From an uncultured bacterium (GTDB taxonomy: Bacteria > Armatimonadota > UBA5829), in assembly GCA_963775535.1 (NCBI GenBank), contig CAVZJH010000057.1:3818-67817 (forward strand): 64,000 nt of DNA, given 5' to 3'. Position numbers and translations under genes: made by a program. The notes beneath the pieces are model-generated. The model saw only the letters and a list, made by a program, of their open reading frames with translations, searched no databases and had not been told where the DNA came from. This document shows positions 15,207 to 34,394 of the stretch, piece after piece (position 1 is the stretch's first letter; the number at the start of each line of letters is the position of its first letter).

Positions 15207-18200
15207 TTGAGGGTAAAGATCTGTATTCTTATAACTGCGGCGGCCTGTTTGCTTGCCGCGGGCGCGTGTTACGCGCAGGATTTTCACCAGGATTCCTGGG
15301 TTGCAACCGACGCGCTTGGACGCCACCTGCCGACCTATGACGTGGTCGGCCCGGTAAAAACCAACAAGACGGCAGGAATCTTCTACTTCTTGTGGGTGGG
15401 GGAGCAGGGCAATGACGGGCCCTGGGACATCACCAAAATCCTTGCGGCCAACCCTACAAACCCAGCCTGGAATACGTCCGGGTCCTACTATTTCTGGTCC
15501 GAACCGGAACTTAACTATTACCATTCCTATGACACATGGATGATCCAACAGCACTGCAGGATGCTGGAGGATGCTGGGATCGATGTTGTCACTTTCGATG
15601 TAACGAACGGTTACACCTACTCCGATGTGCTCACGCCATTATTAACCACTTACGAGCAAATTCGTGCCGCAGGAGGCACAACCCCGCAGATCATGTTTAT
15701 TTGCAATGAGCCTATAGCCTCGTCCTACGGCTATCCGGCTAATACACCTACCGCACAGTGGCTTTATGACAACCTCTATTCGACGGGTCTTTATAACGAT
15801 CTATGGTATCATCTGCCTGGTGACAGCCGTCCATTGGTTTTGTCTCCGGCTTTATCATCGTCCACCTCCCCTACGATCTACAACTACTTTACGACCAGGT
15901 ACGCCTGGGCATGGAACGGAGGAAAGGCGAGTAACTGGACGTGGCTGGATGACTACCCACAGCAGTATGGCGAAGGACCTACCGGGACCCTCGAGGAACT
16001 TTCCGTTTCTATAGCCGAGCACCCGGTGGCCAGCATTGGCGAGGGTAATCCGAAGAACATAAGCAGAGGACGAAGCTTCCACAACAGCGCCGAACAATCA
16101 CCGCCGCAGTCGGCAGAGGGATTGTTCTTTAACGAGCAATGGGGCCGAGCCCTGTCTGTCAGTCCACCGTACGTGTACATAACATCCTGGAACGAATGGA
16201 TAGCCGGGCGGAGCATATACGAGAGCGGCCAGGGTGACCCACCGTACTTCCTCAGCCAGCCGATGACAAATGGCGAGACATATTTCGTGGACACATACTC
16301 TGAGGAATACAGCCGTGACATCGAGCCGATGTTGGGCGGCCATACTGACGATTACTACTATCAGATGATTGCTAACCTTCGAAGGTATAAGGGAGTCAGG
16401 CCACCTCCGACCATCACGAACGAGCCTATCACCATAGACGGCAGTTTCTCAGACTGGACCAACGTCGCGCCCGAATACGACGATTACTCCGGTGACGCGT
16501 TCAACAGGAACTCCCCATTAGTTGGAACGCCCTCATCAACCACAAACACCACGGGCCGCAACGACTTTACAAAGACGAAAGTAGCCTACGACAGCAACAA
16601 CGTCTACTTCTACGTGCAGACCGTAAACCCGATAACCTCGTATACCGGCACGAACTGGATGATGTTGTTCATAGACTCAGACTGCAACGCCGCCACCGGC
16701 TGGAACGGCTACGACTACCTGGTCGATTTCCCGATCGCGGGCCATCCGATTACAGCGAGTACAACTCCTGTGCTCCAGAATACCGGGGGACAAAATACCA
16801 ACTGGTGGAACTGGACTTTTATGGGCAACGCCACCTATGCCATTAACGGAAATCAGATGGAGATAAGTGTGCCGCGCGCGTACATAGGACAGACCGGTAC
16901 CAATGTGGCATTCGATTTCAAATGGGCCGACAACATGCAGGCGTATAACGTCCTGGAGTTCTCCATAGACGGCGACAGCGCTCCGAACCGAAGGTTCAAC
17001 TATCGCTACGCCGCCATATACCCGGGCCCGCAGTGGGAGTTCGTCATAGATTGCGCCAACAGCGAAATGTCCACCACCACTAACCAGGAAGGCTGGATGA
17101 CCTCCGGCTCATCAAGCGTTTCCAACTACTGCATTACCGGTGGCTGCCTTTCGGGCAATGTTTCTTCGTCGAGCGCTTATGTGACCTCGCCGAGCATTCC
17201 GAATATCGATGCCACGAATAACCACTACATCCACATCAGGATGAGCAACACTGCCGGCACTCAGGCTCAGATCTGGTTCCAGACGACAACAGACCAGACG
17301 TTTACCTCTGCGAAGTCGGTCAGTTTCACTACGACCGACGACGGTCAATTCCACGATTACGTTATCGACATGTCGACCAATTCGCATTGGACTGGTTCCA
17401 CCAACACCATCAGAGTCTACCCGATCAACGCGTCCAGCGGCCTCTTCAATATCGACTTCGTCCGCGTTCTGAAGGATTCTCCGATGTTCGTTGGGCCGGA
17501 TACCACCCCGCCAACAGGAACCGTAAGCATCAATTCGGGAGCAGCCTACACCGGCACTACGGCCGTAACCCTTACTACAACGAGCAGTGATGTCGGCAGC
17601 GGCGTTGCTCAGATGAGGTTTAGTAACGATAATTCCAACTGGAGTGCCTGGGCGCCCGTCGCAACTTCCGCAGCCTGGACGCTGGCGACGGGAGACGGCA
17701 CGCAGAGCGTGTATGCTCAGTTTATGGATGCAGTCGGTAATGTCTCTTCATCAAGCTCTGCGTCCATATTGTTGGATACTACGCCTCCCGTGGGCAGTGT
17801 TACTTACAATTCCAATTCCGCGTACGTATCCTCTACTACTTCTACCGCATATCTCTATATGTCGGCGACGGATGCAGGCAGCGGCCTGTACCAAATGCGA
17901 ATAAGCTCAGACAACGTGAACTGGAGTTCGTGGATGACGTATGCCGCAACCAGGATATGGTCGGTTAGTTCCGGTTATGGAGTCAAGAACGCCTGGGTCC
18001 AGTTCAGCGACAAGGCAGGAAACGTGTCGCAGTCCTGCGAAGCCTCTACATACAAGGTGCAGTATTCCGGGTACAACATAGTCACAGCCAAGGGATTGGG
18101 AGATACGATGACAGTGGGTGTATCCGCAAAGGTGGTCACCGCGATATACGGCGACCGCTTCTATGTTGAGGAGCCGAATAGATCCTCCGGTATTATGGTA

Positions 18201-18326
18201 ATTCCGGCGAACGGCGTGCCTGCTAATCTGGTAATAGGCAATACCGTGGATATCGGCGGCGCCATGACTACGGGAACGGATGGCGAGAGGTATCTGTCAT
18301 CAGCAACCGTAGCCATCAAGAGCTAA
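15207..18326 (+). CDS. Large secreted multidomain protein: N-terminal glycoside-hydrolase-like TIM-barrel domain, two tandem Ig-like repeats, C-terminal FY(V/I)E...R..GI.V module
   Basis: Signal peptide. N-terminal motif set (IFYFLWVGE, YYHSYDTWMIQQHCRMLEDAGIDVVTFDVTNG) shared with the 25594-29167 protein. Two ~95-aa repeats (DTTPP(T/V)G(T/S)V..NS.AY...GSG..QMR.S.DN.NWS.W). C-terminal module is shared with the two beta-helix proteins. Confidence 0.6.
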   Translation: MRVKICILITAAACLLAAGACYAQDFHQDSWVATDALGRHLPTYDVVGPVKTNKTAGIFYFLWVGEQGNDGPWDITKILAANPTNPAWNTSGSYYFWSEPELNYYHSYDTWMIQQHCRMLEDAGIDVVTFDVTNGYTYSDVLTPLLTTYEQIRAAGGTTPQIMFICNEPIASSYGYPANTPTAQWLYDNLYSTGLYNDLWYHLPGDSRPLVLSPALSSSTSPTIYNYFTTRYAWAWNGGKASNWTWLDDYPQQYGEGPTGTLEELSVSIAEHPVASIGEGNPKNISRGRSFHNSAEQSPPQSAEGLFFNEQWGRALSVSPPYVYITSWNEWIAGRSIYESGQGDPPYFLSQPMTNGETYFVDTYSEEYSRDIEPMLGGHTDDYYYQMIANLRRYKGVRPPPTITNEPITIDGSFSDWTNVAPEYDDYSGDAFNRNSPLVGTPSSTTNTTGRNDFTKTKVAYDSNNVYFYVQTVNPITSYTGTNWMMLFIDSDCNAATGWNGYDYLVDFPIAGHPITASTTPVLQNTGGQNTNWWNWTFMGNATYAINGNQMEISVPRAYIGQTGTNVAFDFKWADNMQAYNVLEFSIDGDSAPNRRFNYRYAAIYPGPQWEFVIDCANSEMSTTTNQEGWMTSGSSSVSNYCITGGCLSGNVSSSSAYVTSPSIPNIDATNNHYIHIRMSNTAGTQAQIWFQTTTDQTFTSAKSVSFTTTDDGQFHDYVIDMSTNSHWTGSTNTIRVYPINASSGLFNIDFVRVLKDSPMFVGPDTTPPTGTVSINSGAAYTGTTAVTLTTTSSDVGSGVAQMRFSNDNSNWSAWAPVATSAAWTLATGDGTQSVYAQFMDAVGNVSSSSSASILLDTTPPVGSVTYNSNSAYVSSTTSTAYLYMSATDAGSGLYQMRISSDNVNWSSWMTYAATRIWSVSSGYGVKNAWVQFSDKAGNVSQSCEASTYKVQYSGYNIVTAKGLGDTMTVGVSAKVVTAIYGDRFYVEEPNRSSGIMVIPANGVPANLVIGNTVDIGGAMTTGTDGERYLSSATVAIKS

Positions 18327-18351
18327 GCAAGACCCGTCGAGAAAACAGCCC

Positions 18352-18383
18352 AAGGCCGTGGGATTCGTCCCACGGCCTTTTTT
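18352..18383 (+). terminator. Rho-independent terminator (AAGGCCGTGGGATTCGTCCCACGGCCTTTTTT)
   Basis: GC-rich 10-bp stem plus a T6 tract, 25 nt after the stop at 18326. Confidence 0.65.
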
Positions 18384-18490
18384 GGTGCGTATTGCCCGTG
18401 TATCTGAAGCCGGCTCTTTAATGCTCTCACACACAGTCGCAGTTTGATCGCAATAGTTCACTAGTTCTCAGAATCCGAAAAAAGTTCACC

Positions 18491-20009
18491 GTAAGAGTTC
18501 AGGATAGGTGAGTATTTGGGGGCTGCACATCTGAAGGCGACAATTTCCATGACAGTATCATCCTTTAGACAAAGGTACTTTTGGTGCCTTTGTCTAAGTG
18601 GGATGTATGAGTGAGTCGGATGGTATTTCCCGAGCAGAGCTCGTGGCCATAATAGTGGAGTTGCGCCGTGCAAACGCCGTCTTGCAGGAGCGGGTGGAGT
18701 TTCTTGAGGCTGAGGTAGAGCGCCTGCGCTCTCAGCTTCCCAGCGGTGGGACGAAAGTTGTGCCGGAGTGGGTCAAGCCAAACCGCAAGGAACGTCGCGA
18801 GGCCGAACGCAGTGAGCGCAAGAAGCGTAAGAGCTCATTTGTACGTCGTCGCGAGATTCCTACCGAGGTCCATGAGCACGCTCTTGAGCAGTGCCCGAAG
18901 TGCGGGCGTAAGCTGTGTGGCGGATGGATACACCGGAGACGTCAGTATGTGGAGATTCCGGAGACTCCGGTGCGCATAGTCGAGCACAGGATCATAAGGC
19001 GCAAATGCGGGGTATGCGGAACACAGTGCACTCCCAAAGTGGATCTTTCGGCGGAGGTGTTGGGCAAAGCACGTGTGGGGGTGAGGCTTATGAGCTTCAT
19101 TGCTTATCTGCACACGGTCTGCCGGGTTCCATTAAGGACGATAAAGGGCCATCTAAAACTGATATATGGCCTGGATTTGGGCCTTGGGGAGCTTTCCGAG
19201 TTACTTCATGCGGTTTCGAAAGCGGCGGAGCCGGAATATGTTTATCTTCTTGACGAGATTCGTGGTTCTCCTGTGGTGAATGCCGATGAGACTGGTTGGC
19301 GCGAAGACGGCATCAACGGATATATATGGAGCTTCTCCACTCCGGAGCTGCGTTACTTTGTATACCGCAAGAGTCGTTCGGGTGAGGTGGCAAAGGAAGT
19401 TTTGGGTGAAGATTTCGATGGGGTTGTAGTCAGTGACTTCTACTGTGGCTACAGCGTCCTTTTGACGCGTCATCAGCGCTGCTGGGTGCATTTCTACCGT
19501 GACCTCAAAAAGCTCGTCGAGGCATATCCATCGGAGGTATCGGTCGGGGAGTGGGTAGACAAGGTTCTGAGCATATACAATCAGGCAAAAGAGTTCTCAA
19601 GCGATGATGAGCGAGTCCGGATAAGGCAGCGGGAGATATTCGAGCAGGTATTGCTTGAAGTTGCCAGTCCATATCTAGGCACTGATAAGCCCCAACGGAT
19701 ATTGGCCCAACGTATCGAGAGGTTCCTGCCGGAGTTATTCATCTTTGTCGAGGACCCACGTGTGCCGTCTGAAAACAATGCTGCCGAGCGGGCAGTTCGA
19801 CCTTGCGTAATAGCTCGAAAGGTCAGTGGCGGAACCCGCTCAGCAAAGGGCTCTGATACAAAGGCAGTCCTAATGAGTATGTTCGGGACGTGGCTGCTCA
19901 GGGGCCAGGACACAATAAGCATGTGCAGGCAAATGCTCATCTCGGCCAATCGTCTCAAATGCCAGGTGACAGACAAAGCACTTCTCTCTCACGTAGCCTG
20001 AACTCTTAC
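18491..20009 (+). mobile_element. Complete IS66-family insertion sequence of the single-ORF (ISBst12-like) type, 1519 bp, with 8-bp target-site duplication
   Basis: Terminal inverted repeats GTAAGAGTTCAGGATAGGTG (18491-18510) and GTAAGAGTTCAGGCTACGTG (reverse complement of 19990-20009) match at 18 of 20 and begin with GTAAG. Flanked by identical AGTTCACC at 18483-18490 and 20010-20017. Single transposase ORF inside. An 11-bp perfect hairpin (TTAGACAAAGG...CCTTTGTCTAA, 18565-18597) abuts the tnp start codon. Confidence 0.85.
18598..20001 (+). CDS. IS66-family transposase (TnpC-like, 467 aa)
   Basis: N-terminal leucine zipper, CPKCG...C..CG zinc-finger, then motifs ADETGW, NGYIWSF, SDFYCGYS, CWVHFYRD, NNAAERAVRPCVIARKVSGGTRS, all characteristic of IS66 TnpC. 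Confidence 0.9.
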   Translation: MGCMSESDGISRAELVAIIVELRRANAVLQERVEFLEAEVERLRSQLPSGGTKVVPEWVKPNRKERREAERSERKKRKSSFVRRREIPTEVHEHALEQCPKCGRKLCGGWIHRRRQYVEIPETPVRIVEHRIIRRKCGVCGTQCTPKVDLSAEVLGKARVGVRLMSFIAYLHTVCRVPLRTIKGHLKLIYGLDLGLGELSELLHAVSKAAEPEYVYLLDEIRGSPVVNADETGWREDGINGYIWSFSTPELRYFVYRKSRSGEVAKEVLGEDFDGVVVSDFYCGYSVLLTRHQRCWVHFYRDLKKLVEAYPSEVSVGEWVDKVLSIYNQAKEFSSDDERVRIRQREIFEQVLLEVASPYLGTDKPQRILAQRIERFLPELFIFVEDPRVPSENNAAERAVRPCVIARKVSGGTRSAKGSDTKAVLMSMFGTWLLRGQDTISMCRQMLISANRLKCQVTDKALLSHVA

Positions 20010-20024
20010 AGTTCACCCGTTCAC

Positions 20025-20053
20025 TTGACAATGACGCGATTGTGGGATACATT
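20025..20053 (+). promoter_or_regulatory. Sigma70-like promoter TTGACA-17-TACATT for the 20133 gene, 16 bp from the IS66 right end
   Basis: Read directly; not tested. The IS insertion point is 8-15 bp upstream of the -35 element. Confidence 0.4.
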
Positions 20054-20132
20054 ACGGTAGCATGCATAACCGCGGGCTTGCCTACTTGGCCTGCAGCTAT
20101 TGTAGCGATTCTCAACTGCGGGAGGAAATGCA

Positions 20133-23100
20133 ATGAGTGGCAAGTCGGTTTTAGTATTGTGCCTGGTCGCTGTTTGTCTTGTTTGTTGTGCCTCGCAGGC
20201 GGGCTGCAGCACGTTCTATGTTACCTCGTCCGGAAAGGACACCAACTCCGGTCTTAGTTGGCAGGCTGCCAAGGCGAGCGTCGCGGGCGGCGTCAAGGTC
20301 GCGAGTGCGGGCGATCAGGTCTGGGTCGCCGCGGGGACTTACTCAGGAGGCATCACTGTGAACTCCGGCGTCGCTCTCTACGGCGCTTTCGCCGGGACTG
20401 AAACGCAGCTCAGCCAAAGAAATCTGGCGGCCAACCTTACCGTTCTCCAGGGCGGGGGCAGCGCGGGCAGCGTCGTCACCATTGCCGCCAACGCCACCTC
20501 AGCGACTGTGTTGGACGGGTTCACCATCAGGGATGGCACCGGCACCGTAGGAGGATACTACGGCGTGGACTGCTACGGCGGCGGAGTATACTGCGGCATA
20601 GGAGCTTCTCCTGTCATTTCACACAATATTATTACCTCGAATTGGATAAATGGTTTGTCGTTTGAATATGAAGACGAGGAGATTGACGGATGCGGGTTTG
20701 GCGCAGGTATCTACTGCGATGATGGAAGTCCCGTTATGGCTAATAATTTGATCTTCGACAATGTAGCGGATAGCCAGGGTTACGGTTTCGCGGACGGTTT
20801 TGGAGGAGGCGTTATGTGTCAGGGCGGACAACCGATCATCGTCGGCAACACCATTACGTCTAATACGGGGAATTATGCGCTCGATATTGAAGACACCAAC
20901 TCCAGCACCATTATCAACAACATTGTCGCCTTTAATACCGCGGGGATTTACGAGACGACCTATGGCCCAATAACTATTGGTAGCAACTGTGTGTACGGGA
21001 ATAGGAGCGGCAACTATTATGGGCAGGATTTGACGGGCCAGGACGGTAATATTTCGTACGATCCGCTGTTCAAGTCCACGAACGACGACGACTACCACAT
21101 CAACGCCCTCTCACCATGCTGCAATACCGGCGACGATGCTACTGCCGCTTTATATCCACTGGATCTCTACGGGCAGTCGAGGACACTCGGAGGCCACGCC
21201 GACATGGGTGCGATCGAGTCGGACGGCACGATGTGGCCGGCGACCGTGACGACACCCGTGATCGGACTCGCCTCGGGAGTGCATACAACAGTTCAGTCCG
21301 CAACCGTGACATGCGCTACCGGCGGCGTGACCATACACTACACGCTAAATGGCGTTGACCCGACCGAATCCGATCCCGTGGTCGCGTCCGGATCAAGTGT
21401 AACCATCGACTACTCCGCGACCCTCAAAGTCAAAGCATTCGTGCCGGCTTGGACGCCAAGCGCTGTCTCCTCCGCCTCATATGTGATCCGCGCGCCGGTC
21501 GTAGTGTACGTAGACCACAACGTTCTCTCCACCGTGCAGGATGGAACGTCGTGGTCGACGGCAAAAAAGACAATATCCGCAGGTCTTTCCGCCGTCGTTT
21601 CGGGTGACCAGGTATGGGTAGCGCAAGGAACCTACGTTGAGCAAGTTACGCTGGTAAATGGCGTCGCATTATACGGTGGTTTTCCATCGGGCGGCGGTGA
21701 CTGGAGTTCCCGCACCCCGAAAACGAACCAGACAATTGTTGATGGCAACCAGGAAGGCAGTGTCATAACGTCGCCGTCGGGAGCGAGCGCGACGACGGTT
21801 ATTGATGGATTCACTATCCGAAATGGAGTTCCAAACGGTTTCGGCGACGGCGGAGGGGTGTACTGCTCGTCCTCCTCGCCGACTGTTTCGCACAACACGA
21901 TCGCGGCTAACTACGCCTTTGGGGTTTTCAGTGACCTCTCCTCCTCACCGCAGATTTCAAACAACATTATCACGGGAAACGCCGAGGCCGGAATATACTG
22001 TACCTCAGCGGCAATATTCAATAACTTGATTTCGGGAAACTCTTCAACAAACTGCAGTGGAGGGATAATCTGCCTTGGCAATGCGACCATATATAACAAC
22101 ACTATCACCGGAAACAGCTCAGATAGCCGCGGCGAAGGCGCAGCGATATACTGCGGCGGTGGGTGTCCCACAATATGCAACAACATTGTGGCATTCAATT
22201 CGGCGGGGATCTTCAATGAATCTGGTGGTCCAGTCTTGCGCAATAACTGCGTGTATAACCCGGACGGGATCAACTACATCTATCTGTCGGCGGGCAAAGG
22301 AGACATTCAAGTTGATCCAAAGCTGGTCGCAGTCGCATACGGCCAGGTTCACATCCAGCCGGACTCGCCGTGCGTAGACGCGGGCGATGACAGTGTGGTG
22401 CAGCCGGGGTGGGTCGATATGGATGGGCAGACCAGGATTCAGGGCGCGCATGTGGACATTGGGGCCGACGAATCGGACGGAACAACCTGGACATACGCCC
22501 CCGCGATAGTGCGTGTGAGTCCCGCCGGAAATGATTCCAATGACGGCTCCAGTTGGGCTTTGGCAAAGAAATCGGTCCAGGCGGGCATAAACGTTGCGTC
22601 TTTAGTCGGTGGCGAGGTATGGGTCGGGGCAGGTACTTACAACGAGTGTTTAATTCTTACCCCTTATGCCTACCTCTACGGCGGTTTTGCCGGAACTGAA
22701 ACCTCAAGGGACCAGCGCAACTGGAATACCAACGCCTCTATTCTTGACGGCGGGGGCGTTGGCGGCGTGGTCATCTCAGAGACCGGTCACAAGGTCACAG
22801 CCAGCGGGATAGATGGTTTCACAATTCGACATGGAAACGGCTACGGAATATGCTGCGCGGGTTCTTCGCCGACCATTGCTAACAACACTATCACGGCAAA
22901 CACCACGAGCGACAGCGGTAGTGGCACAATATACTGCTACGGCTCCTCACCGACAATTCTCGGTAACATTGTCTCAGGAAACACGGCTTCGAGTAAGTTG
23001 GATTTTTGCGCCGGTGCAATCTACTGCGAGGAATCCTCACCGACCATCTCAAACAACACGATCTCGTCAAATTCCGGGAGCGGCGGCGGCAGCACTATAA

Positions 23101-24586: not shown

Positions 24587-25576
24587 ATGAAGCACTCTGT
24601 TCGCACAGCGGTCTTGATAGTCCTCGGCATTATAGCGGTGTCGGGCTGCGGTTGGTGCACGACTGTAAAGAAAGAATTCACGCTTCCCGTTTGGGCCGGC
24701 TGTCCATTTCGTCCAAGAATATCCGGCGACTGGATAGTCGACGTGCAGAACAAAGATGACAAAGGCTGCGGCTCAACTTCCATTGGCATTATGCTCTACA
24801 ATATTGCTACAGGGAAGTCATATATGGCTTATGCAAGGAGCTGCCGGTTGGTGCTCCATAGCCGGCACGCTGGCTGTGTGGACGGGAAAAACCACAAATA
24901 TCCAGGGTTTCTGTACCTCTCAAAGGTGACAGAAGCGGCTCGGACAACCCATCGAACATGGTCATGGTAGATGCGAAAGACTGGCGTTACTACACGCCGC
25001 GGGTGACCAATGGGCCTGCATTTGCTCCTGTGGTTTGGGCGAATTACGTCGCTTACGAGGGCAGCAACAGTCAGATTTATCTGGTAGATATGAACGATGG
25101 CAAGATAATACAGGTTTCCCAGTCGGGCACTCAGAATACTAATCCTCAGATTGGGCAGAACCTTGTTACCTGGGAAGAGCATACCGACAAGCGGCAAATA
25201 TGCGGCTATCGCATAGGCAGCGGCGAATGTCTACAGATTACCGATGACCCCGGTGAAGAAAACTGCGGGGGTTATACTGATGGCAAGACCGTGGTTTGGT
25301 ATAACAAAGGAATTTCCGCGTATGATGTGGCAACCCGCGCCAGGACGCAGGTAAGCCGCGCTGGTTACTACCCGGACGTGAGTGACGGAATTGTAGTATA
25401 CCTCAAAGGTGTCAACAATCATATCGCAGTTTTTGGATACGATCTGGCTGCGCGAGAAGAATTTCCGCATAAGCAGCGGCTACTCCGATTGCGGCCCATC
25501 GATCGACGGCAACCGGGTCATCTGGTGCCTGGGCAATAAAATCTACTGTGCCGAGCTCGATCGCGGCGCAAAGTGA
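24587..25576 (+). CDS. Beta-propeller-type repeat lipoprotein (repeats of the form ..VVW......IY.YD...), broken by two frameshifts near 24960 and 25470
   Basis: Lipoprotein signal (LGIIAVSGC). Repeats such as VVWANYVAYEGSNSQIYLVDM, GKTVVWYNKGISAYDVATR and GNRVIWCLGNKIYCAEL. Translation runs frame 2, then frame 1, then frame 2. Confidence 0.4.
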
Positions 25577-25593
25577 GCGCCCGTTAAGTCCGC

Positions 25594-28500
25594 CTACTTC
25601 TTTGTCTTATCCACAACCGGCGCCGGTTCCGCCGCGATTGCCGGCATATTGGCGCGCTCCAACGTAATCGCCACGATTTTCATGTCGGTGTTCTTCGGCA
25701 GGGTTAGGCTCGCCAGCGTCTTCGCGGGATCGAGCTGGATCGTGTAATGGTAGAGATAGCAGTTCGTCCCGATCTCATCGCCGCCGTGGCTGTGGCGATG
25801 GCGAATAAGATAACCTACCTGCTCGCCGTGCTTGGGACCCTCCCCCCAGTCGCTCATCTTGATCGGCGCGACTGCCGCAGAGCCGCTGTAGTTGAGCGAA
25901 ATATCTCCCGAAGCGTCACCGTTGGACGATGCTGCGAGGATGTGGAGCGCGACATAGTTCGTGTTCTCAACATCTACCTTCTGACCGCTGCATGCCACGG
26001 CGTTGTTCTTTTCTTCCGCCGACTTCTCGGGATAGAGGAAACTTATGCGTCCATCGGGATGGGGTGCGCGGTCCCAGTTGTAGCCGGAGGGGTAAACCTG
26101 GCTTGCCATCTCTGTGGCGCTGGCGTCGGGCGGCAGGTATTCCGACGGAAAGCTGGAGCCTTTGCCGTCGAAATCGCCAACCGTTCTGTTCACATCCGGG
26201 CTTGCCGCGCTGATGTCGTATAACTTACTCAGGTCAACGAAGGCCAGTTTGCCGTTGTTGATCTCGATACTCACCGGAAGGATGTCGCCCCCCCGTGTAA
26301 TCGGAAGAGTGGAGAGCCACTCATCGTCGATCATGATGTCCCACACAAGCACGTATTGACCGTCGTACTTAGGCAGCGCAACCTTTGCGGTAACAACCGT
26401 GGGCATTTCCGGCTGAAGATTCGCCGGGAGTGGCGTCGAAGGGTTGTCCCACTGCATGAGAGTGCCGTCTACGTGGTACCAGTGATAACCGATCCTGGTT
26501 CGCTTGCGGTCCCACGCAGTGACGCCGTCGTTCTTGATAACGACCTTCACATCAACGACCTGGCCGGCCACCAGCTTCGGCGGAATGTTACAGTCCGCTA
26601 TCCTTGCGCCGTAGTCAGAATCGAAAATGTCCACTACGCGGTCGAGCGTATTCGAATTGAGCTCTAAAAACCACTTGTCGCCGCTGAATATATCGAATCG
26701 GAGCTGATAGCTCCAGGGATAGTCCTGCTTCCAGCTCGGGACAAGGCTCCTGTCGGGCTGCGACAGGTTCAGGTCGACCACAAACTCGGCAATCTCCCCC
26801 GGCTTGCAGTCCTTGAGGAGAATCGCCCGGACATCTCTTATCGGAACCTCTTCCTGCATTTCGTTCGGGTTATCGTGAGTATAATTGGCCACCTTAAACA
26901 GCCTGCATCCCAGCTTGGTAACGCCCTTGGGCCAGACTTGGGAACCGTCGTTGCGCGCCCGCACAACCGCGGCATAACTCTGGCCGGACACCATCATCTC
27001 CGGGGCATCGCACGAAAGATAAGTCGCGGACCACTCAGGCGTCTTCCCAATAACGGTCGGCACTATGAGCGCCTGGCTTCCGAACGCCGAGAACCACTTG
27101 TTATCGGCAAGCCGAACCATCTCAAAACGCAGCTCGCAGTTGCCTTCCGGGATCGGCGTCCCGGCCGCGCTCATTGGCGCGATCCCGATGTTCACCCTGA
27201 TTGCTTCGCCCGGCTGCACATCTCTTTCCAGAGGCCGTTTGATCTTGCTGTCTCCCAGGAACCGGCCGCTCTTATACCATCTGTAGGACAAGCCAAAGCC
27301 GTCAGAGACTCGCCATTGCGAATTGCCGGTGTTTCTGATGGTTAGTTCGGCCTGGGCAAACTGACCGGGAGCCACCGTCTTTGGCACATTATAGCTCAGG
27401 AACTGAGCGTCGAAGTCCCGGTTTCCGAGGAAGCGCTTCACGTTGGCGCGTGTCGCGTCGATATACTTCCGGCCATATTCACGGCTCGCGCACATATCGC
27501 TGGCCTCGTGAAGCTCGTCCCAGCCATCGCACACGACCCAGAGCGGCGGCTTCTGGAGGATGGAGAGCCAGTCTTTTTCATATGTATCCCCGCCGAGCCT
27601 GGGTCTCATCAGCGCATTGCCCGCCTGAGCTACCGCAGAGTTGTCGAAACCGGCCCCGACGGATGCTACGCGAATACGCCCGCCTTCGTCCTGCTTCGCT
27701 CCAAGTCCCGCGCCGTAGGTGCAGATGCCGTCGCATACCTGAACCTTGGGTTCGTAGTCTTTCGATGCGATCCAGACCAGTTTGCGCCCGAAGTCGTGCT
27801 CGTATTTTTCATTGCAGTATTGCATAAAGCTGGAATCGAAATCGGAGAAAAAGCTGCTGGTATAGAGCACCACTATATCGGCCTGCCCGCCCGCGTCGGG
27901 CTTACCGGTCTGAGCGGTTGCGCGATAGTCAACAGGAATCCGGTCATAGAAATCCTTGATCATGCCATAGAAGGTGCGCTCGACCTCTTCGTTCTTTAGA
28001 TTCGGGCTTTGCGCCGTAGGCAGCCTGCATCGCGGTAGTGTCGAAGAACATCGCCACCAGGGGATATTGCTTGCCCTCATCGCGCAGTTCGTCGAGAGCG
28101 GAGATCATGCAGTCCAAACCCTTGTCCGCGAAACCTGCCCGGTCGGCCTTGTCGCCCCAGTAGACCGGCAGAACCACGTCTATGCCGGCGGCGATGATAT
28201 CGGAAAGCTGTTCCTTGTGCCACTGTACTCTATCGTAACTGAACCATGGTCCGGCGTTTCGGACGGGCGAGTCCTGAAGCTGCAGGGCTCCGTCAGGTCC
28301 CACGATGTGGCTGTAAGGCGCAGACTTTCGCGGATCCGCCTGATACCAGTAGAAATAGTGCGTCATCACCATTTTGTGTGGTGGAAACTTAGCCTCGTAG
28401 ACGAAACCTTCGGGCACCGGAAGGTCAATGGCGAACGATGTGTTGGCTGTCCACTCTTTATTGGAAATTATGCCGTCGATCAGAGGAGGACGGACTATGG

Positions 28501-29167
28501 TCTTGGAGGAGAGGATCTTCTCCGCGCTCATCGTTGCAGCGCCGAACGTATACTGCGCGAACACGAGGTTCACCCACTTGGCGGGACACATAGTATCATC
28601 TTCAGTCTTCACACGCGGCGAGAGGCTTACAAACTCGCCGCTCTTGTCGCCGTGCCGGTGAACCAGGATGTTGAAACTTACCATGTCGCCGAACTTGGGC
28701 GTCGACGTTTTCATCGCCAGCCAGGGAATAGCTATCTCCACCGTGTAACCCATGTCGATATCGTCGCTGTTGTTGAGCGTTCCCTGGACCGTGCAGCCGT
28801 ATTTGAACGACCACACAGGCACCGGCTCGAATGTTCCCTTGTCCGTTCCCACCTGGAACTGCGCGCCGCCCGCGGCGGAGACTGTCATATTGATGCACGC
28901 GGGGGTTACGCGAGCCGAGTGCTTGTCGTTTGCCTCCACGAATACCGAGACCGAGTCATCTCCCGAAACATCCGCATTGGGAGTGGTATGTGTGCCCTCG
29001 ACATCGGGGCAGTCCACTTTGAATGCGAGGTAGAAGTATGTTTCGTCCCAATTGGTGTAGCACTGGACCCGGTCTTTGGTCACGACCTCCTGGGCCAGGG
29101 CATACGTTGCGCAAAGCATCAATAGCGCACACATGAAGACGCAGACAAACAGCTTTTTGAGCTCCAT
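25594..29167 (-). CDS. Large secreted multidomain protein: CBM9/DOMON-like N-domain, GH-like TIM-barrel domain paralogous to that of the 15207 gene, three or more CARDB/Ig-like beta-sandwich repeats; one frameshift near 27950-28080
   Basis: Signal peptide at 29167. TYFYLAFKVDCPD (CBM9-like). HYFYWYQADP...FSYDRVQWHKEQLSDIIAAGIDVVLPVYWGD matches the 15207 protein's motifs. Repeated modules (VAPGQFAQAELTIRNTGNSQWR / MVSGQSYAAVVRARNDGSQVWPK / LVAGQVVDVKVVIKNDGVTAWDR). The ORFs at 27944-29167 and 25594-28080 overlap in different frames. Confidence 0.6.
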
Positions 29168-29262
29168 TTTCGTCCTTCCATAGAGAGGCTGACGGCGGTC
29201 AGCGGTCGACTAGCAATGTTGCTGCTTCGGCTGCATGCAACGAAGCGAATAATAACCGCGTT

Positions 29263-29383: not shown

Positions 29384-29415
29384 CCTGCCAAGACAAATAA
29401 ACGTATCACACGTTC

Positions 29416-30576
29416 CTACCGCTTCAGGCTGCTAACGAAGCGCCCTATACGCTCGATTGCCATCTCTATTTTATCTATTGAAGTCGCGTACGAGCAGCGA
29501 ATATGGCCTTCTCCGCATTCTCCGAATGCGCTTCCGGGCACAACCGCTACTTTTTCTTCAAACAGAAGCCGCTCGCAGAACTCGTCCGAACTCAGAGAAG
29601 TTTCCTTTACCGAGGGAAACGCGTAGAACGCGCCGCCCGGCATAAGGCATTCGAGGCCCGCGTCGTTCAAGCCCTTTACGATGACTCTCCGGCGCTGGCC
29701 GTACTGCTCGATCATCGATTCACTTTCGTCGTAGCCATTCTTGAGAGCTTCCAGAGCCGCTACCTGGGCCATGATCGGCGCGCACATCATCGTATACTGG
29801 TGAATCTTCATCATCGCTTCGATGACATCCGGAGCAGCAGCCGCGTACCCGATCCGCCAGCCGGTAATGGCATAGGCCTTCGAAAAGCCGTTCAGCAGGA
29901 TCGTGCGCTCGTAAGCGCCGGGCAGGGCCGGAAGGCACGTATGGGCTCCATCGTAGGTCAGGCGGTCGTAGATTTCGTCTGAGACAATGAAGAGATCGTG
30001 CTTGCGCGCTACATCCACGATTCCCTGCAGCGTTTCGCGGCTTGCGACAGCGCCGGTGGGATTGCTTGGATAGCTGATCCAGACAGCCTTGGTCTTAGGG
30101 GTGATGGCCGCCTCGATCTGCTCCGGCGTTACCGCAAATCCGTTTTTCGCGTAAGTGCACACCGTCACGGGTACTCCGCCGGCAAGGCTGATGCAGGGCT
30201 TGTAGGCCACAAAGCACGGCTCGGGACAGATCACTTCATCGCCTGGGTTCAGGATCGTGCGCATGACAAGGTCCATGCCCTCGCTCACGCCCACCGTGAT
30301 CAGTACCTGGTTCTCGGGATTGTATTGGAGGTTCTCACGGGCATCCAGGTTGCTCGCAATTGCCTTGCGAAGCTCAAGCAGGCCGTAATTGGAGGTGTAG
30401 TGCGTGTGCCCGTGTTCGAGCGAGTATATGCAGGCTTCGGTTATGCGCCAGGGAGTGTCGAAGTCGGGTTCGCCCACGCCGAGCGACACAACATCTTTCA
30501 TCTGCGACACAATATCGAAAAACCTGCGTATTCCCGACGCAGGCATGGATTGGACTACCTTGGAAATCTCTTTCAT
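29416..30576 (-). CDS. Pyridoxal-phosphate-dependent aminotransferase, class I/II (AspC family)
   Basis: 386 aa. Motifs GVGEPDF, NPTG, SDEIYDRL, NGFSKAYAITGWRIGY (the lysine of SK is the PLP-binding residue). Confidence 0.85.
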   Translation of the reverse strand: MKEISKVVQSMPASGIRRFFDIVSQMKDVVSLGVGEPDFDTPWRITEACIYSLEHGHTHYTSNYGLLELRKAIASNLDARENLQYNPENQVLITVGVSEGMDLVMRTILNPGDEVICPEPCFVAYKPCISLAGGVPVTVCTYAKNGFAVTPEQIEAAITPKTKAVWISYPSNPTGAVASRETLQGIVDVARKHDLFIVSDEIYDRLTYDGAHTCLPALPGAYERTILLNGFSKAYAITGWRIGYAAAAPDVIEAMMKIHQYTMMCAPIMAQVAALEALKNGYDESESMIEQYGQRRRVIVKGLNDAGLECLMPGGAFYAFPSVKETSLSSDEFCERLLFEEKVAVVPGSAFGECGEGHIRCSYATSIDKIEMAIERIGRFVSSLKR

Positions 30577-30663
30577 GACTTGCGACAGCCTTTCTCAGTT
30601 ATCAGTTCATTGCCTTTGGTTATCAGTTGTCAGCCGATAACCGAACACTAACAACTGATGGCT

Positions 30664-31146
30664 TTACGGGGTAACGGCCAGTCTGCCTTCGGCTGCTACT
30701 TCTTCATAAATATCGCCGTCGACTTTGTATTTCTTGAGCAGAAAGCTCGACCGCGTGGACAGGACACCTTCCAGCGTAGCCAGCTTCTCGGCCACGAAGA
30801 ACGCCACGTCGCGCATGGTCTTGCCCTCGACTACCACTCTCAGATCGTAATCACCCGATACCAGATATACCGAGTGGACCTCGGGGTAGTTGTAGATTCG
30901 CCTAGCGACGTCGTCGAAGCCGACCCCTCTAGATGGGCTGACCCGGACGTCGATGAATGCGAATACCTGCTCCTTGCCGGCCTTTTCCCAGTCTACAATA
31001 GCTTTATAATGCCGGATCTGGCCGCTTTCTTCCAGTTGCTTGACGGCCCTGCTAATCTCCTCCTCGGTTCGGCCCAGCATCACGGCCATCTGCGCCGAGG
31101 AGGTGCGTGCGTCTCGCTCGAGGATCTTTAGTATCTGCTTTTCCAT
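30664..31146 (-). CDS. Lrp/AsnC-family transcriptional regulator
   Basis: Likely start at MEKQILKILERDARTS (HTH), with C-terminal RAM domain (FAFIDVRVSP...VYLVSGDYDLRVVVEG). Divergently adjacent to the aminotransferase, a typical Lrp arrangement. Confidence 0.8.
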   Translation of the reverse strand: MEKQILKILERDARTSSAQMAVMLGRTEEEISRAVKQLEESGQIRHYKAIVDWEKAGKEQVFAFIDVRVSPSRGVGFDDVARRIYNYPEVHSVYLVSGDYDLRVVVEGKTMRDVAFFVAEKLATLEGVLSTRSSFLLKKYKVDGDIYEEVAAEGRLAVTP

Positions 31147-31319
31147 TGTTCTTCCTAATCCTAGAATTGTCCAAATTCTACAACCTACCGGTTTAGCTGT
31201 CAAACCGACCGGGTTTTTGAAAACTGCCCTTGACGCCTGCCTGCTTATGGGCTACACTGCGTAGTGACAAGTATGCAATGGATAAATCAAACAACGGGCG
31301 TTTTGCCAACGGAGCGTGA

Positions 31320-34300
31320 ATGATGAGATTCAGGGTGCGGATGCTAAGCGCGTGTGCCGTAATGCTTCTTTCAATGCTGTCATCATGCGTGCAAGCGGGC
31401 AAGATCGTCTATGTCGACAGTTCAACAGCGTCGGCGGGTGACGGACTTACCTGGGCGACGGCAAAGACAACGGTCACTGCCGGGCTTGCCGCATCGGCGT
31501 CAGGCGATCAGGTCTGGGTGGCGCAGGGAACGTATGTTGGGCTCATTCACGCTGGTAAACGGCGTTGCGTTATACGGCGGTTTTCCGTCGGGCGGCGGAG
31601 ACTGGAGTTCCCGCGACTCTAAGGCCAATGTGACAATCCTGGACGGCGGCCAGGGTGGCAGCGTGGTCACTTCGCCGCCCGGAGCGACCGCAACCATAGA
31701 TGGCTTCACAATCCGAAATGGCAGCAACTTCGGAATAAACTGCGTCCGCATCTCCTGGCCGACGATTTCCAACAACATTATTATTGGAAACAGCGGCGGC
31801 GGGATTAACTGCGGCGTCTCCTCGGCGACTATTTGCAACAACACTATCACGGGGAACAGCGCAACCAATAACGGCGGTGGGATTAACTGCGGCACTGCCT
31901 CCTCGGTGACGATATCCGACAACACCATCACGGGAAACAGCAGTTACGATGCCGCGATATACTGCTACAGCGTCACATCGGCAGCCATCTCCAACAACAC
32001 CATCACTGGGAACAGCAGCTGTGGGATTTGCTGCAACTCGTCCTCTTCGGCGACCATTTCCAACAACAACATTACTGGAAACGGCCCGACATCTGACGGC
32101 GGCGGCATATACTGTTATAGTTCCTCCTCGCCGACGATTTGCGACAACACGATCGGCGCGAACAGCTCAGAATATGGCGGCGGGATTTACTGTGACTCGT
32201 CCTCTTCGCCGACGATCACCAACAACACTATCACCGCAAACAACGCAGACAGTGGCGGCGGGATATACAGCGCTTGCTCAGGCCACTCTTCATTGAAGAT
32301 CTCCAACAACATCGTGTCTTTCAATTCATCAGGGATATACAGCGGTGGAGGTTCTCTCGTCTTGAGGAACAACTGCGTCTACAACCCCGATGGCGCCAAC
32401 TATTCCGGGTTATCAGCGGGAATGGGTGACATTCAGGTTGATCCCAAGCTGGTCGCTGTTCAATATGGCCAGCTCCATATCCAGCCGGACTCGCCGTGCG
32501 TAGATGCCGGTTACGACGCCGCGGTGCAGCCGGAATGGGTGGATATGGACGGACAGCCACGCATTCAAGGCGCGCATGTCGATATCGGCGCGGACGAATC
32601 GGATGGGACTGCGTGGACGTTTTGCTCCCACGGTGGTGCGCGTGAGCGCTACAGGAAACGATGCCAATGATGGTTCCAGTTGGTGCTTAGCAAAGAAAAC
32701 CGTGCAGGCGGGAATCAATGCGGCATCGGCCGCCGGTGGTGACGTGTGGGTTGCTGCCGGAACTTACAACGAGCAGGTAACGCTCACGGATTATGCTTAC
32801 CTCTATGGAGGCTTCGCCGGAACTGAATCCGCCGCGGACCAGCGGAACTTCAGTGCCAACAGCACAATTCTTGATGGCGGAGGAGGAGAGAGCGTTGTCG
32901 TCATGGAGGTCGGAAACAAGGCGAGCGGGGTAGATGGGTTCACAATCCGTAACGGAAACGCTGACTACTTTGGCGCTATAGTCTGCTATTGCTCCTCGCC
33001 GACTGTTTCCAACAACATAGTCACGGGAAACAAGGAAAGCGGTATATGGTGCTCGAATTCCTCGGCAACGATTTCCAATAACATCATCACGGGAAACAGT
33101 GAAGACCCAACGTACTCCGGCGTCGGCGGCGGCATATACTGCTGGAGCTCATCGCCGACGATCTCCAACAATACCATTACCGGAAACAGCGCAGTTGATG
33201 GCGGCGGGATAGAATGCGACGGCCCGGCGATTATTTCCAATAATATCATCACAGGAAACAGCGCAAATGCCGGCGCAGGAATAGAGTGTGACTGGTGTTC
33301 GGCGATTATTTCCAATAACATCATCGCGGGCAACAACGCAGGAAGCAGCGGTGTCGGCGGCGGTATATACTGCTGCGACGACTCCTCGACGCCTATTTCC
33401 AACAACACAATCACAGCAAACAGCGCATACGAAGGCGGCGGTATATACTGCGACGACTCCTCTTCGCCACCGGTTTCCAACAACGTAGTGTCTTTCAATT
33501 CGTCGGGACTCGATAGCGGCGGCGGTTCCCCGGTCATGAGGAACAACTGCGTCTATAACCCAGATGGGGCCAACTACTCCGGGTTATCAGCGGGAACGGG
33601 TGACATTCAGGTCGATCCAAAGTTTGTCAGCTTGACCACAGGAGATTATCATTTAACCGCCGGTTCACCGTGCATCAATGCCGGCTGGAACGCAGCGCCT
33701 GGAATTGGATCGGTCGATATGGACGGGAACCCCAGGATATTGCCGGCTGGTGGAACCGTGGATATCGGGTGCTATGAATATCTCGCTCAGATGAGCGGCT
33801 CCGGGCAGGCTAAGGCTGGCTCTCAACAAGTAGCAGTTAAGCTGGCCGGCAAACCTGTAACCGCGGTATTCGCTGGGGAGTTCTACATAGAAGATACTGA
33901 CCGCTGCGGCGGGATTAAAGTCGTATCAAGTCAAGCTGTAAATCCCGGCGACCTCGTGACGATAACTGGAAATACGGCTCCGGATAATGGAGAATGTGCG
34001 CTTTACCCGGCGTCCATCTCCGTCACCCCGGGCGCGCCGAGCAATGTGCCGGGGGCGCTGCTGCTGACCAATCGCTGCATTGGTGGTGGAGCTTTCTTCT
34101 GGAACGCGAACGGCAACGTCTGCGGTCAGGAAGGGGATCACGGATGGGTTCGGCTTGAACAACATCGGTCTTCTGGTTCGGGTTTGCGGGACATTTGCCT
34201 ATGTCGACAGCCAAACGTTCACCCTCGATGATGGCAGCGGCGCAGTGGTGAAGTGGACCGTGCCAGACGGCGTTACCTTGAGCTCGACCTTGACCTATGC

Positions 34301-34394
34301 CGGCGTGACCGGTATCTCGTCCTGCGAGATCGTCGGCAGTGAACTGCACCGGCTCATCCGGGTTCGAACACAGAGCGATATAGTAAGTTATTAG
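31320..34394 (+). pseudogene. Paralogue of the 20133 beta-helix gene (two DUF1565-like head + PbH1 units plus the same C-terminal region), interrupted by three single-base frameshifts (~31535, ~32598, ~34100-34160)
   Basis: About 75 percent identity to units 2 and 3 of the 20133 protein over long stretches. Translation switches frame 3, then 1, then 2, then 3. Two junctions reconstructed by eye: an extra base in GTTGGGCTCATTCACGCTGG, and TTTT versus TTT at ~32598. Ends ...HRLIRVRTQSDIVSY. Either a genuine pseudogene or assembly indels. Confidence 0.65.

Follow-up and report, generated by a model that had tools for sequence, protein, structure and literature searches.

The exported proteins of this region have a new unifying feature, a C-terminal tail made of two OB folds in tandem, which is absent from both Pfam and NCBIfam. 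Several large exported proteins, enzymes as well as adhesin-like ones, are encoded in the region, and three of them carry the OB-fold tail at their end, where its most likely role is to keep secreted proteins attached to the cell surface. The tail is widespread in Armatimonadota, to which nine of the 11 named carriers, the source of this taxonomy, belong. We assign a probability of about one in two to an overall explanation in which the region would be ordinary, non-island chromosome, the proteins A and D glycanases, B and F adhesin-like proteins, the tail a surface tether and the frame breaks found in several genes assembly errors. The gene anatomy, the folds, the distribution of the tail and its position in its carriers, its absence from two libraries and the structure of an IS66 element are established by the analysis. 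The best relatives of the window, that is, of the whole 64-kb stretch of DNA analysed, are Armatimonadota, and the window is probably a stretch of chromosome from this phylum, whose members are widespread, poorly cultured and regarded as polysaccharide degraders. The features are the following:

15207 to 18326, forward strand: gene A, 1039 aa, intact; from N to C terminus, signal peptide, GH71/GH99-like (beta/alpha)8 barrel (~25-400), CBM9-like sandwich (~400-600), beta domain without family (~620-760), two OmpL47-type Ig domains (~786-950), OB1-only tail
18075 to 18314, forward strand: OB1-only tail of A (residues 957-1036), matching profile positions 5-81
18352 to 18385, forward strand: terminator-like hairpin just past the stop codon of A, a 12-bp perfect stem followed by a T-run
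18482 to 20018, forward strand: IS66-family insertion sequence with its target duplications, in the A-B intergenic spacer
20133 to 24458, forward strand: gene B, 1441 aa, intact, with Pfam and NCBIfam matches and internal repeats; signal peptide, three times a Cys-rich parallel beta-helix with choice-of-anchor Q, CHB_HEX_C_1 Ig-like domain (380-447), tandem-OB tail
23829 to 24455, forward strand: tandem OB-fold tail of B, 252 bits against the module's own profile
24587 to 25576, forward strand: gene C, lipoprotein (lipobox VSGC) with TolB-like beta-propeller repeats
25594 to 29167, reverse strand: gene D, ~1190 aa after repair of one frame break; signal peptide, CBM9, GH99-like barrel with DELHE, at least three NBR1-type Ig domains, C-terminal beta domain
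29416 to 30576, reverse strand: class I/II aminotransferase (Pfam, 245 bits)
30664 to 31203, reverse strand: Lrp/AsnC regulator (Pfam, 62.5 bits)
31320 to 34394, forward strand: gene F, 1023 aa once three +1 frame breaks are repaired; lipobox-like signal peptide (LSSC), two beta-helix plus choice-of-anchor Q units, full tandem-OB tail
~33836 to 34391, forward strand: tandem-OB tail of F, full length
35183 to 36188, reverse strand: gene G, GH43/32/130-type five-bladed propeller glycosidase or phosphorylase (Pfam, NCBIfam)
44991 to 46415, forward strand: gene H, exported, with NPCBM_assoc and CBM9 domains

Open reading frames were found where the initial annotation had placed A, B, C, D and F, but the genes that it described as six consecutive ones are interspersed with the IS66 transposase, the aminotransferase and the Lrp/AsnC regulator. 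Signal peptides, which it ascribed to all of them, are predicted at the N terminus of A, B, C, D, F and H; none was found in G, which looks cytoplasmic from its sequence. The right-handed beta-helices that it named were recovered in B and F (PF13229, 126 and 95 bits; choice_anch_Q, 59.7 bits), the CBM9-like domains in D and H by Pfam (PF06452; 38.5 bits at the N terminus of D and 26.5 in H, gathering cut-off 23.4) and in A at the level of the fold (Foldseek match to 7nwn, probability 0.91), and the Ig-like repeats in D (N_BRCA1_IG, three copies, 36.7 bits) and A (OmpL47-type, two copies). The description of the region as rich in exported multidomain proteins, carbohydrate-active or beta-helical, is supported, and polysaccharide degradation and surface adhesion are a reasonable role for it. 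In C, the NCBIfam matches to beta_prop_Msarc and TolB are both under the cut-off.

The tail, of ~200 residues, consists of two OB-fold barrels, OB1 and OB2, and a conserved Gly-rich linker, and the five-stranded closed beta-barrel of OB topology is present in A, B and F, in full tandem form in B and F and as OB1 alone in A. In the tail of B, OB1 is marked by FYIE..R..GIRV ... GE, the linker by LGGG ... GQ.G and OB2 by GLNNIGLLVR ... DDGSG ... VTGISSCE ... RVR..DIVAY. The sharing of FYIE (A, B, F) and of DIVAY (B, F) had been noticed correctly, but they had been assigned to two separate domains, a division that we reject, being OB1 and OB2 of a single module. The OB1-only tail is the native form in the A family, whose members P0002, P0004, P0006, P0007 and P0014 likewise stop after OB1.

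The module family comprises 5,185 cluster representatives (E≤1e-30 for 1,536), and the claim of shared uncharacterised modules holds for this tail, for which the profile searches found no curated family in Pfam-A 2025 or NCBIfam 20.0. Searches with 28 modules returned generic OB families under threshold only, none of them matching more than six; for the B module, the only one whose scores and cut-offs are listed in the Pfam/NCBIfam tables, the best sub-cut-off matches were tRNA_anti-codon (15 bits, cut-off 27) and PRK06763 (14.6 bits, cut-off 226). No Pfam family is common to the 47 full-length carriers. The tail also differs from the BOF family (YgiW-YdeI, PF04076; PDB 1nnx), which consists of small stand-alone periplasmic stress proteins with one OB fold: the matches of the tail to it are far under the family cut-offs, and the motifs GLNNIGLLV, DDGSG, VTGISSCE and FYIE..DR..GIRV are specific to the tandem-OB module. 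As a domain of over 5,000 protein clusters that lacks an entry in either library, the tail would serve as a marker of the exported and surface proteome of Armatimonadota, and better annotation of thousands of “hypothetical proteins” would follow.

Once exported by Sec, the tail would bind a ligand that is the same for its carriers and is located at or near the cell, most probably a glycan of the envelope or matrix, and would thereby hold passengers as different as enzymes and adhesins at the cell surface, as a counterpart of the dockerins, SLH domains and T9SS tails of other phyla. Its position, its cargo, its cysteines and its slot all point to such a tether. The module lies at most 12 aa from the C terminus in 110 of 143 carriers; the passenger domains are diverse (Beta_helix, NosD, SBBP, DUF7948, RCC1, LRR, fn3, Ig) and the N terminus is hydrophobic in 76 of 98 carriers; two cysteines of OB2, conserved in 86-89% of sequences, and a median pI of 5.0 form an extracytoplasmic signature; and the C-terminal slot of A-family homologues is occupied by Dockerin_1 (P0001), by the T9SS Por_Secre_tail (P0079, P0087) or by the OB tail. 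B and F, both carriers, also have choice-of-anchor Q. Like dockerin and SLH domains, which are modular, promiscuous binding domains that retain secreted enzymes on the cell and are found at either end of proteins or repeated, the tail is not confined to one position, but it is unrelated to them in fold and sequence. As a ligand-binding tether, it would offer a concrete hypothesis for how Armatimonadota retain secreted enzymes.

A signal for secretion or sorting, recognised by an outer-membrane translocon of its own and possibly removed by cleavage, in analogy with the T9SS C-terminal domain, would also fit the extreme C-terminal position in 77% of carriers, the apparent restriction to one phylum (11 named carriers), the slot shared with Por_Secre_tail and the conserved yet disordered Gly-rich linker, a possible processing site. 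We consider it quite unlikely, in view of the 33 carriers (23%) in which the module is internal or N-terminal and the 21 (15%) with two or more full copies, arrangements that fit a binding module and not a strict sorting signal. Moreover, the tail is more than twice as long as the 75-position Por_Secre_tail profile, the A family keeps OB1 only, a 201-aa protein (P0326) is a stand-alone module, and neither a conserved partner gene nor conserved machinery genes were found in the five sampled carrier neighbourhoods, a negative that counts against the tether as well. A T9SS sorting domain in the proper sense (PF18962, Bacteroidota) was rejected: the T9SS tail is a single Ig-like beta-sandwich, whereas this tail has two OB barrels, is not always terminal, and can be duplicated or reduced to OB1, and A, B and F have no match to Por_Secre_tail or CHU_C. 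The two are alike in being attached to many unrelated exported cargoes, largely within one phylum; there is no sign of a T9SS-like machine.

The ligand of the tail could instead lie outside the cell, the tail being a carbohydrate-binding module that targets its carriers to an external plant or microbial polysaccharide and not to their own surface. Oligosaccharide binders are known among OB folds, and carriers with internal or repeated copies recall the arrangement of carbohydrate-binding modules; CBM9-like domains occur in A and D, and in L084, L087 and L088 the carriers stand amid GH2, GH42 and sugar ABC transporter genes. This alternative is nonetheless unlikely, since most passengers are non-enzymatic (RCC1, LRR, SBBP propellers, beta-helix repeats, fn3, Ig), FKBP (PF00254) and WD40 appear in the precomputed Pfam annotation of carriers such as P0335, P0338 and P0341, and the slot in the A family is filled by a dockerin or a T9SS domain and not by carbohydrate-binding modules. 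Binding of nucleic acid, for example of extracellular DNA in a biofilm matrix, is suggested by the nearest solved folds, which are nucleic-acid binders and as such speak against the tether; these match at the level of the fold only, with 8-24% sequence identity, and the modules are acidic (median pI 5.0, median net charge -5), which makes this reading highly improbable. Going beyond a surface tether, the tail could tentatively be the address label of an unrecognised display system specific to Armatimonadota, with dozens of labelled proteins per genome, an envelope polymer as the ligand and the linker LGGG...GQ.G as processing site or ligand clamp; if true, this would add a new structural class of surface anchor to SLH, dockerin, LPXTG, PEP-CTERM and the T9SS tail.

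Regarding the passengers, A and D would be secreted glycanases with CBM9-like and Ig-like accessory domains. Their barrels are distant relatives of the GH71/GH99 superfamily, that is, of GH99 endo-alpha-mannosidases and mannanases and of GH71 alpha-1,3-glucanases, by profile and fold, including the NEW(H)E region. The N-terminal barrel that the initial annotation saw as shared by A and D is indeed common to both, with remote homology only (hhalign probability 92%, E=5.7e-7; BLASTP only E=0.003), but it is not unassigned, and the notion of uncharacterised modules does not extend to it. Homology to the (beta/alpha)8 barrels of solved GH99 structures was found with the A profile (A3, 39 homologues) against 4acy (E=5.4e-7) and with the profile of the D family (A7) against human MANEA, 6zdc (E=7.4e-6), the latter spanning the catalytic motif. 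With the AF2 model of A (pLDDT 72), Foldseek retrieved GH99 4ad5 (E=2.6e-5) and the GH71 alpha-1,3-glucanase structures 9fng/9fnf (E~1e-6) and Agn1 8yfh (E=6e-5), a similarity to GH71 at fold level, with a TM-score of only 0.34-0.40. Pfam found no match in A, and both barrels are below the threshold of the GH99 family PF16317, with no match even at E≤10; PF16317 is present in the precomputed annotation of some A homologues.

The catalytic motif differs between the two proteins. Against the GH99 reference N-E-W-H-E (E333 and E336 of BxGH99, as named in PDB 6fwq and 6fwo), D reads D-E-L-H-E and its relatives N-E-[YF]-H-E, so that both Glu are kept, whereas the A family reads N-E-W-[VI]-A, with an invariant first Glu and an invariant Ala in place of the second. 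The activity of A is uncertain because this second Glu is absent, and the enzyme specificities of both proteins are putative. Unlike GH71 and GH99 enzymes, A has as its core a ~580-aa unit in which the barrel is combined with a fixed CBM9-like domain; this core, which has more than 1,700 relatives and whose catalytic motif is altered, may represent a new glycoside hydrolase specificity.

B and F would be adhesin-like rather than enzyme-like, with their Cys-rich parallel beta-helices and choice-of-anchor Q. F is a paralogue of residues 445-1441 of B (49% identity), and both match Beta_helix, NosD, para_beta_helix and choice_anch_Q; B has 48 Cys and 14 N-x-I-x-x-N rungs. They resemble parallel beta-helix surface proteins (choice-of-anchor Q NF041518, NosD-like and Pmp-like repeats) in being Cys-rich and in their GG[AG][ILV] motifs, but they have no autotransporter barrel, PEP-CTERM, LPXTG or T9SS tail, and the tandem-OB module stands in the anchor slot. 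A chlamydial Pmp-type autotransporter adhesin was rejected for B, which has three GGA[ILV] and nine GG[AG][ILV] motifs but no FxxN, matches POMP_repeat about at the cut-off (E=0.014) and has no autotransporter domain in Pfam.

Several genes of the region are broken in frame: C at ~24925 and ~25455, in a three-frame reading, D at ~27990, F at a GGG (~31538), a TTTT (~32620) and a GGG (~34140), and G three codons past the ATG at 36188. The initial annotation had spoken of a degraded paralogue and a broken propeller gene. The breaks are real in the sequence, but all are of ±1 nt, several at short homopolymers, and the reading of C, D, F and G shows no in-frame stops and intact conserved motifs. 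Core genes have the same breaks at about the same rate (xfp once, the E1 dehydrogenase twice, mfd once), a small membrane-protein gene is affected too, and the E1 dehydrogenase, although spread over three frames, is 79% identical to an intact homologue. For this reason assembly error, in the form of single-base consensus errors, is likelier than decay, and the picture of a rapidly evolving, decaying locus loses its support; frame breaks of long-read-style assemblies can mimic gene decay. C and F may still be truly inactivated, since the interval from 24.5 to 36.2 kb has 8 breaks in ~12 kb, whereas the 7.4 kb of A and B have none.

This bears on the proposal that the 19 kb form one accessory island, horizontally acquired, strain-specific, fast-evolving and decaying. 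For such an island speak the cluster of frame breaks in C, D, F and G, the presence of an IS66 element with a perfect target duplication, and the GC content, 0.53-0.56 against 0.57-0.60 in the flanks. The drop, of 2-4 points only, is partly due to proteins rich in Ser, Thr, Asn and Gly (in gene A, GC1 is 0.45 and GC3, 0.66, is near that of the remaining window). A and B are intact, no tRNA was found in the 64-kb window, and the Pfam scans, for the ORFs that they covered, returned no integrase. The Lrp and aminotransferase genes, which adjoin one another in many phyla, form a housekeeping pair inside the supposed island, and in the Armatimonadota MAG L001 this pair and D (59% identity) are syntenic; among the blocks compared, F alone has no counterpart there, the place beside Lrp being taken by MetRS and other housekeeping genes, which speaks for an island. 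On balance the island is not supported as a unit, and we regard it as quite improbable. The setting would rather be one of five Sec-exported multidomain proteins interspersed among housekeeping genes, with a recent IS66 copy between two of their genes. H, further downstream, has no OB tail in the profile scan.

The IS66 insertion reported by the initial annotation is present (DDE_Tnp_IS66, 139.5 bits; transposase ORF 18598-20001), but it is intergenic and interrupts no gene, so that it does not count as damage to an island. Interruption of a gene was ruled out: A ends at its own stop codon, as its homologues do after OB1, and the terminator hairpin, with fully complementary arms (18352-18363 and 18368-18379, 100%), lies ~160 bp upstream of the element. 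The element proper (~18490-20010, 1521 bp) belongs to the IS66 family by its transposase, its 25-nt terminal inverted repeats starting GTAAG (18488-18512 and 19988-20012, 88% complementary) and the perfect 8-bp target duplication AGTTCACC (18482-18489 and 20011-20018). Unlike classical IS66 elements, it is only 1.5 kb long and has no accessory tnpA or tnpB, the transposase gene being the single ORF of at least 180 aa between the inverted repeats, an organisation that we take to resemble the ISBst12-like subgroup.

Open reading frame analysis and three-frame reading confirm the positions that the initial annotation had assigned to its genes, and they give the following layout for the candidate surface and carbohydrate-active genes (A, B, C, D, F, G and H, F being a paralogue of B) and the genes lying between them.

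15207-18326, plus strand: gene A, 1039 aa
18598-20001: IS66 transposase
20133-24458, plus strand: gene B, 1441 aa
24587-25576, plus strand: gene C
25594-29167, minus strand: gene D
29416-30576, minus strand: class I/II aminotransferase
30664-31203, minus strand: Lrp/AsnC regulator
31320-34394, plus strand: gene F
34632-35172, plus strand: small zinc-ribbon membrane protein
35183-36188, minus strand: gene G
44991-46415, plus strand: gene H

Signal peptides are found at the N-terminus of A, B, C, D, F and H, with a lipobox (VSGC) in C and a lipobox-like LSSC in F. G, which had been listed among the secreted proteins, starts with MNS, lacks a signal peptide and continues as a cytoplasmic-looking propeller of the GH43/32/130 type. 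The exported proteins are thus real, yet they are not encoded by six consecutive genes, as had been proposed, because the transposase and two housekeeping genes (aminotransferase and Lrp/AsnC) intervene. The gene at 34632-35172 is convergent with G, their ends lying about 10 bp apart, and in its product several membrane-like hydrophobic stretches follow a double CxxC zinc ribbon at the N-terminus. A rhomboid-type sorting protease was considered for it and rejected, since the translation shows only a small membrane protein with no visible protease motif.

The valuable part of the original observation is the shared C-terminal sequence. The FYIE...R..GI.V module and the C-terminal DIVAY domain had been described as separate shared domains, but they are the two halves, OB1 and OB2, of one tandem OB-fold module of about 200 residues (hereafter, the tail), and in relatives they co-occur in fixed order, with the exception of the A family, which has OB1 only. 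A local HMM search of the window found the complete module in B and F, and OB1 alone in A. The consensus of the tail is FY.E..DR..GIRV ... GER.I ... LGGGD W.Y...G.GQ.GV.G..GLNNIGLLVR..G.V....F.IDDGSG..VKC.VP.GV....YV.VTGISSCE..G..L.RL.RVR...DI. The AF2 model, obtained from an alignment of 24 sequences (pLDDT 86.8, pTM 0.84), predicts two five-stranded barrels at module residues 16-84 and 137-208. The Gly-rich linker between them (residues 98-130, LGGG ... GQ.G) is disordered in the model, with pLDDT <50, despite the conservation of G98, G99, Q123 and G125 at ≥90%, and may clamp a ligand or be a site of processing. Foldseek found no closer structure for the tail, and an origin of OB1 and OB2 by internal duplication finds no support in hhalign (E=0.029, probability 1.7%).

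A word-indexed search with a single tail sequence retrieved only 23 relatives. Searched exhaustively with a profile, 1.84 billion cluster representatives yielded 5,185 matches at E≤1e-3, of which 3,926 also pass E≤1e-10 and 1,536 pass E≤1e-30. A set of 47 full-length carriers has no Pfam family in common, and the Pfam and NCBIfam matches of 28 isolated modules are all to generic OB families and below threshold; no description of the tail was found in the literature searched, and tblastn of the tail against 72,556 plasmids gave no match. Nine of the 11 carriers from named organisms are Armatimonadota, one of the nine being annotated as "choice-of-anchor Q domain-containing protein". The tail is a large family of tandem OB-fold modules on exported proteins, absent from the domain libraries and apparently centred on Armatimonadota.

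Among the 143 best carriers, the module ends within 12 residues of the C-terminus in 110, is internal or N-terminal in 33 and is present in at least two full copies in 21; a hydrophobic N-terminus was found in 76 of 98 carriers. The passenger domains of the 47 full-length carriers include Beta_helix (12/47), NosD (11) and SBBP propellers (6), together with DUF7948, DUF1565, CHB_HEX_C_1, Chlam_PMP, RCC1, LRR, fn3 and Ig. This diversity argues against a substrate-specific CBM. With a median pI of 5.0 the modules are acidic, which makes nucleic-acid binding unlikely, and two OB2 cysteines are conserved in 86-89% of the sequences; both features fit an extracytoplasmic domain that does not bind nucleic acids. 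The predominantly terminal position might suggest a strict secretion signal, but internal, duplicated, OB1-only and stand-alone forms exist, and these favour a binding domain. The stand-alone form is P0326, an Armatimonadota protein of 201 aa consisting of the tandem-OB module alone (10001-10606 of the comparison locus L087); as called, it has no obvious signal peptide, and two GH2 genes follow its gene immediately downstream. No conserved partner gene was found near tail carriers in five sampled neighbourhoods.

Further indications come from homologues of the catalytic core of A in other lineages. One of them, P0001, ends in Dockerin_1 (residues 1340-1389 of 1399), two others end in the T9SS domain Por_Secre_tail (P0079, 943-1018 of 1030; P0087, 1171-1245 of 1249), and P0008, P0032 and others end in the OB tail, indicating that one catalytic core is joined to the anchoring or sorting tail proper to each lineage. 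NCBI naming defines "choice-of-anchor" domains, the type carried by B and F, by their pairing with varying anchors. Taken together, the best explanation of the tail is a surface-tethering domain, structurally novel but of a known functional type, which would hold exported proteins at the cell surface; on this comparative analysis we give the tethering function about even odds (roughly 0.5). As a family the tail is clearly delimited and open to experiment, and its function is an inference.

In B, a unit made of a parallel beta-helix and a choice-of-anchor Q domain occurs three times, alongside one CHB_HEX_C_1 domain. F, once its three frame breaks are repaired, is 49% identical to residues 445-1441 of B and has two such beta-helix and choice-of-anchor Q units. 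Both proteins show regular N-x-I-x-x-N rungs, nine GG[AG][ILV] motifs each and many cysteines (48 in B, 36 in F), and neither has a feature pointing to an active site; we regard them as putative adhesin-like surface proteins.

HMM and structure searches of the modules that had been left unassigned lead, for the barrels, to a known superfamily, and leave the tail without a Pfam or NCBIfam family. Residues 1-780 of A have no Pfam or NCBIfam match. Relatives of A number more than 1,700, from Phycisphaerae, Armatimonadota and Chloroflexota; most are about 578 aa long and 43-51% identical to residues 1-580 of A, and some are labelled PF16317 (GH99). A profile of 39 relatives matches the GH99 endo-alpha-mannosidase structure 4acy (E=5.4e-7) over beta-strands 3-4 and the NEW motif, and the AF2 model of A (pLDDT 72, pTM 0.78) resembles GH71 (9fng, E=1e-6) and GH99 (4ad5, E=3e-5), with residues ~400-600 matching CBM9 (7nwn, probability 0.91). 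At N-E-W-H-E, the first Glu is invariant in the A family and the position of the second is an invariant Ala. D, with its one frame break repaired, joins a CBM9 and a barrel to three or more Ig domains of the NBR1 type. Its barrel profile (five sequences) matches human MANEA (6zdc, E=7.4e-6) across the catalytic motif; both glutamates are kept in D (DELHE), and its relatives have NE[YF]HEG. Compared profile to profile, the barrels of A and D match with a probability of 92% (E=5.7e-7, 186 columns), a similarity that is significant only with the five-sequence D profile and not with the single D sequence. The proposal of a GH-like barrel common to A and D is thus correct as remote homology only, and the barrels can be placed in the GH71/GH99 superfamily. 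The C-terminal domain of D (residues ~1049-1174; 25594-26100, minus strand) shows a weak sequence match (E=0.003-0.004) to AziU2/Azi28 of azinomycin biosynthesis (7wuw, 8gs1).

The OB1-only tail of A could be taken for a product of the adjacent IS66 element (~18490-20010), which has one transposase ORF, 25-nt inverted repeats that are 88% complementary and a perfect 8-bp duplication, AGTTCACC, on both flanks. Truncation by this element was rejected: the reading frame of A closes at its own TAA (18324-18326), and a perfect 12-bp hairpin with a T-run (18352-18385) comes next, 160 bp ahead of the IS66; the target duplication is intact; and five homologues (P0002, P0004, P0006, P0007 and P0014) likewise stop directly after OB1. 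The insertion, probably recent, thus lies in the spacer between A and B and breaks no gene. A second transposase or IS is probably represented by the 436-aa protein encoded at 56907-58217 (minus strand), with HTH_29, HTH_28, HTH_23 and HTH_32 matches, in a low-GC patch (0.546-0.556).

The initial annotation, which holds largely for the proteins and their shared modules but errs in treating the genes as adjacent, in giving G a signal peptide and in the role ascribed to the IS, had viewed the region as a decaying accessory island of 19 kb. The GC content is 0.53-0.56 over 15-34 kb versus 0.57-0.60 in the flanks. In A, the drop is mainly at codon position 1 (0.45), as fits a protein rich in Ser, Thr, Asn and Gly, and GC3 (0.66) is near that of the rest of the window. 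Evidence against an acquired island comes from the absence of tRNA genes from the window and of integrases in Pfam scans of the ORFs tested, and from the conservation of Lrp, aminotransferase and D in another Armatimonadota MAG (L001, JARYME010000097), where aminotransferase (72%), Lrp (78%) and the D N-terminus (59%) follow in the same order, with MetRS and other housekeeping genes in the place of F. The E1 dehydrogenase of the window (38-40 kb) has a homologue of 79% identity on the metagenome contig L085, in which two tandem A-like genes (6403-13066), both with an OB1-only tail, lie a few kb from the E1 gene; the distance between A and E1 in the window is about 20 kb. Genes of the A type appear to shift position within this neighbourhood, and relatives of A occupy differing neighbourhoods (L084, L085). 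D as a query in a metagenome scan retrieved only three loci, all distant, and exact-protein queries with the aminotransferase, Lrp and B found no match in the public gene collection. The picture is of a native stretch of chromosome that gains and loses surface-protein genes, not of one acquired block, and the reading as a decaying island is weak.

Decay had been deduced from a degraded paralogue and a broken propeller gene. Single-base breaks do occur in F, C and G, but core genes are hit alike: about 13 are found in the 64 kb, across core and accessory genes, with sites at 9420, 24925, 25455, 27990, 31538, 32620, 34140, 34790, 36180, 38110, 39770 and 50195 and in the fragmented glycosidase at 46.5-49 kb. 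F has three +1 shifts, each of which a single surplus base in a short homopolymer (GGG, TTTT, GGG) would explain, with no in-frame stops on three-frame reading and intact motifs. In C the frame breaks twice, at AAA(A)GG and GAGAAG, and it breaks once each in D, in G (three codons past the ATG) and in the zinc-ribbon gene (~34790). Among the core genes, phosphoketolase xfp (8399-10779) has one break, AGAAGC being read as AGAGC, mfd/TRCF (49257-52804) has one, and the 2-oxoacid dehydrogenase E1 (37984-40295) has two, being otherwise 79% identical to an intact homologue of 731 aa. A glycosidase with an MGH1-like/GH116-like six-hairpin domain (46542-49026, minus strand) appears split into at least three overlapping open segments, with Pfam matches in the 46894-47997 piece only, and a related metagenome assembly (L086) has similarly fragmented genes. 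Since core and accessory genes carry like breaks, consensus error is the simplest reading, and the split xfp, E1 and mfd suggest residual indel errors in the assembly behind the whole window. The breaks are denser at 24.5-36.2 kb and absent from A and B, and true inactivation of C or F is possible.

Upstream of A, the 379-aa product of 12684-13823 (plus strand), which has no Pfam match, combines a hydrophobic N-terminal segment, a long low-complexity stretch rich in Ser, His and Tyr and a globular C-terminal part, and its gene shows a codon-position GC pattern similar to that of A.
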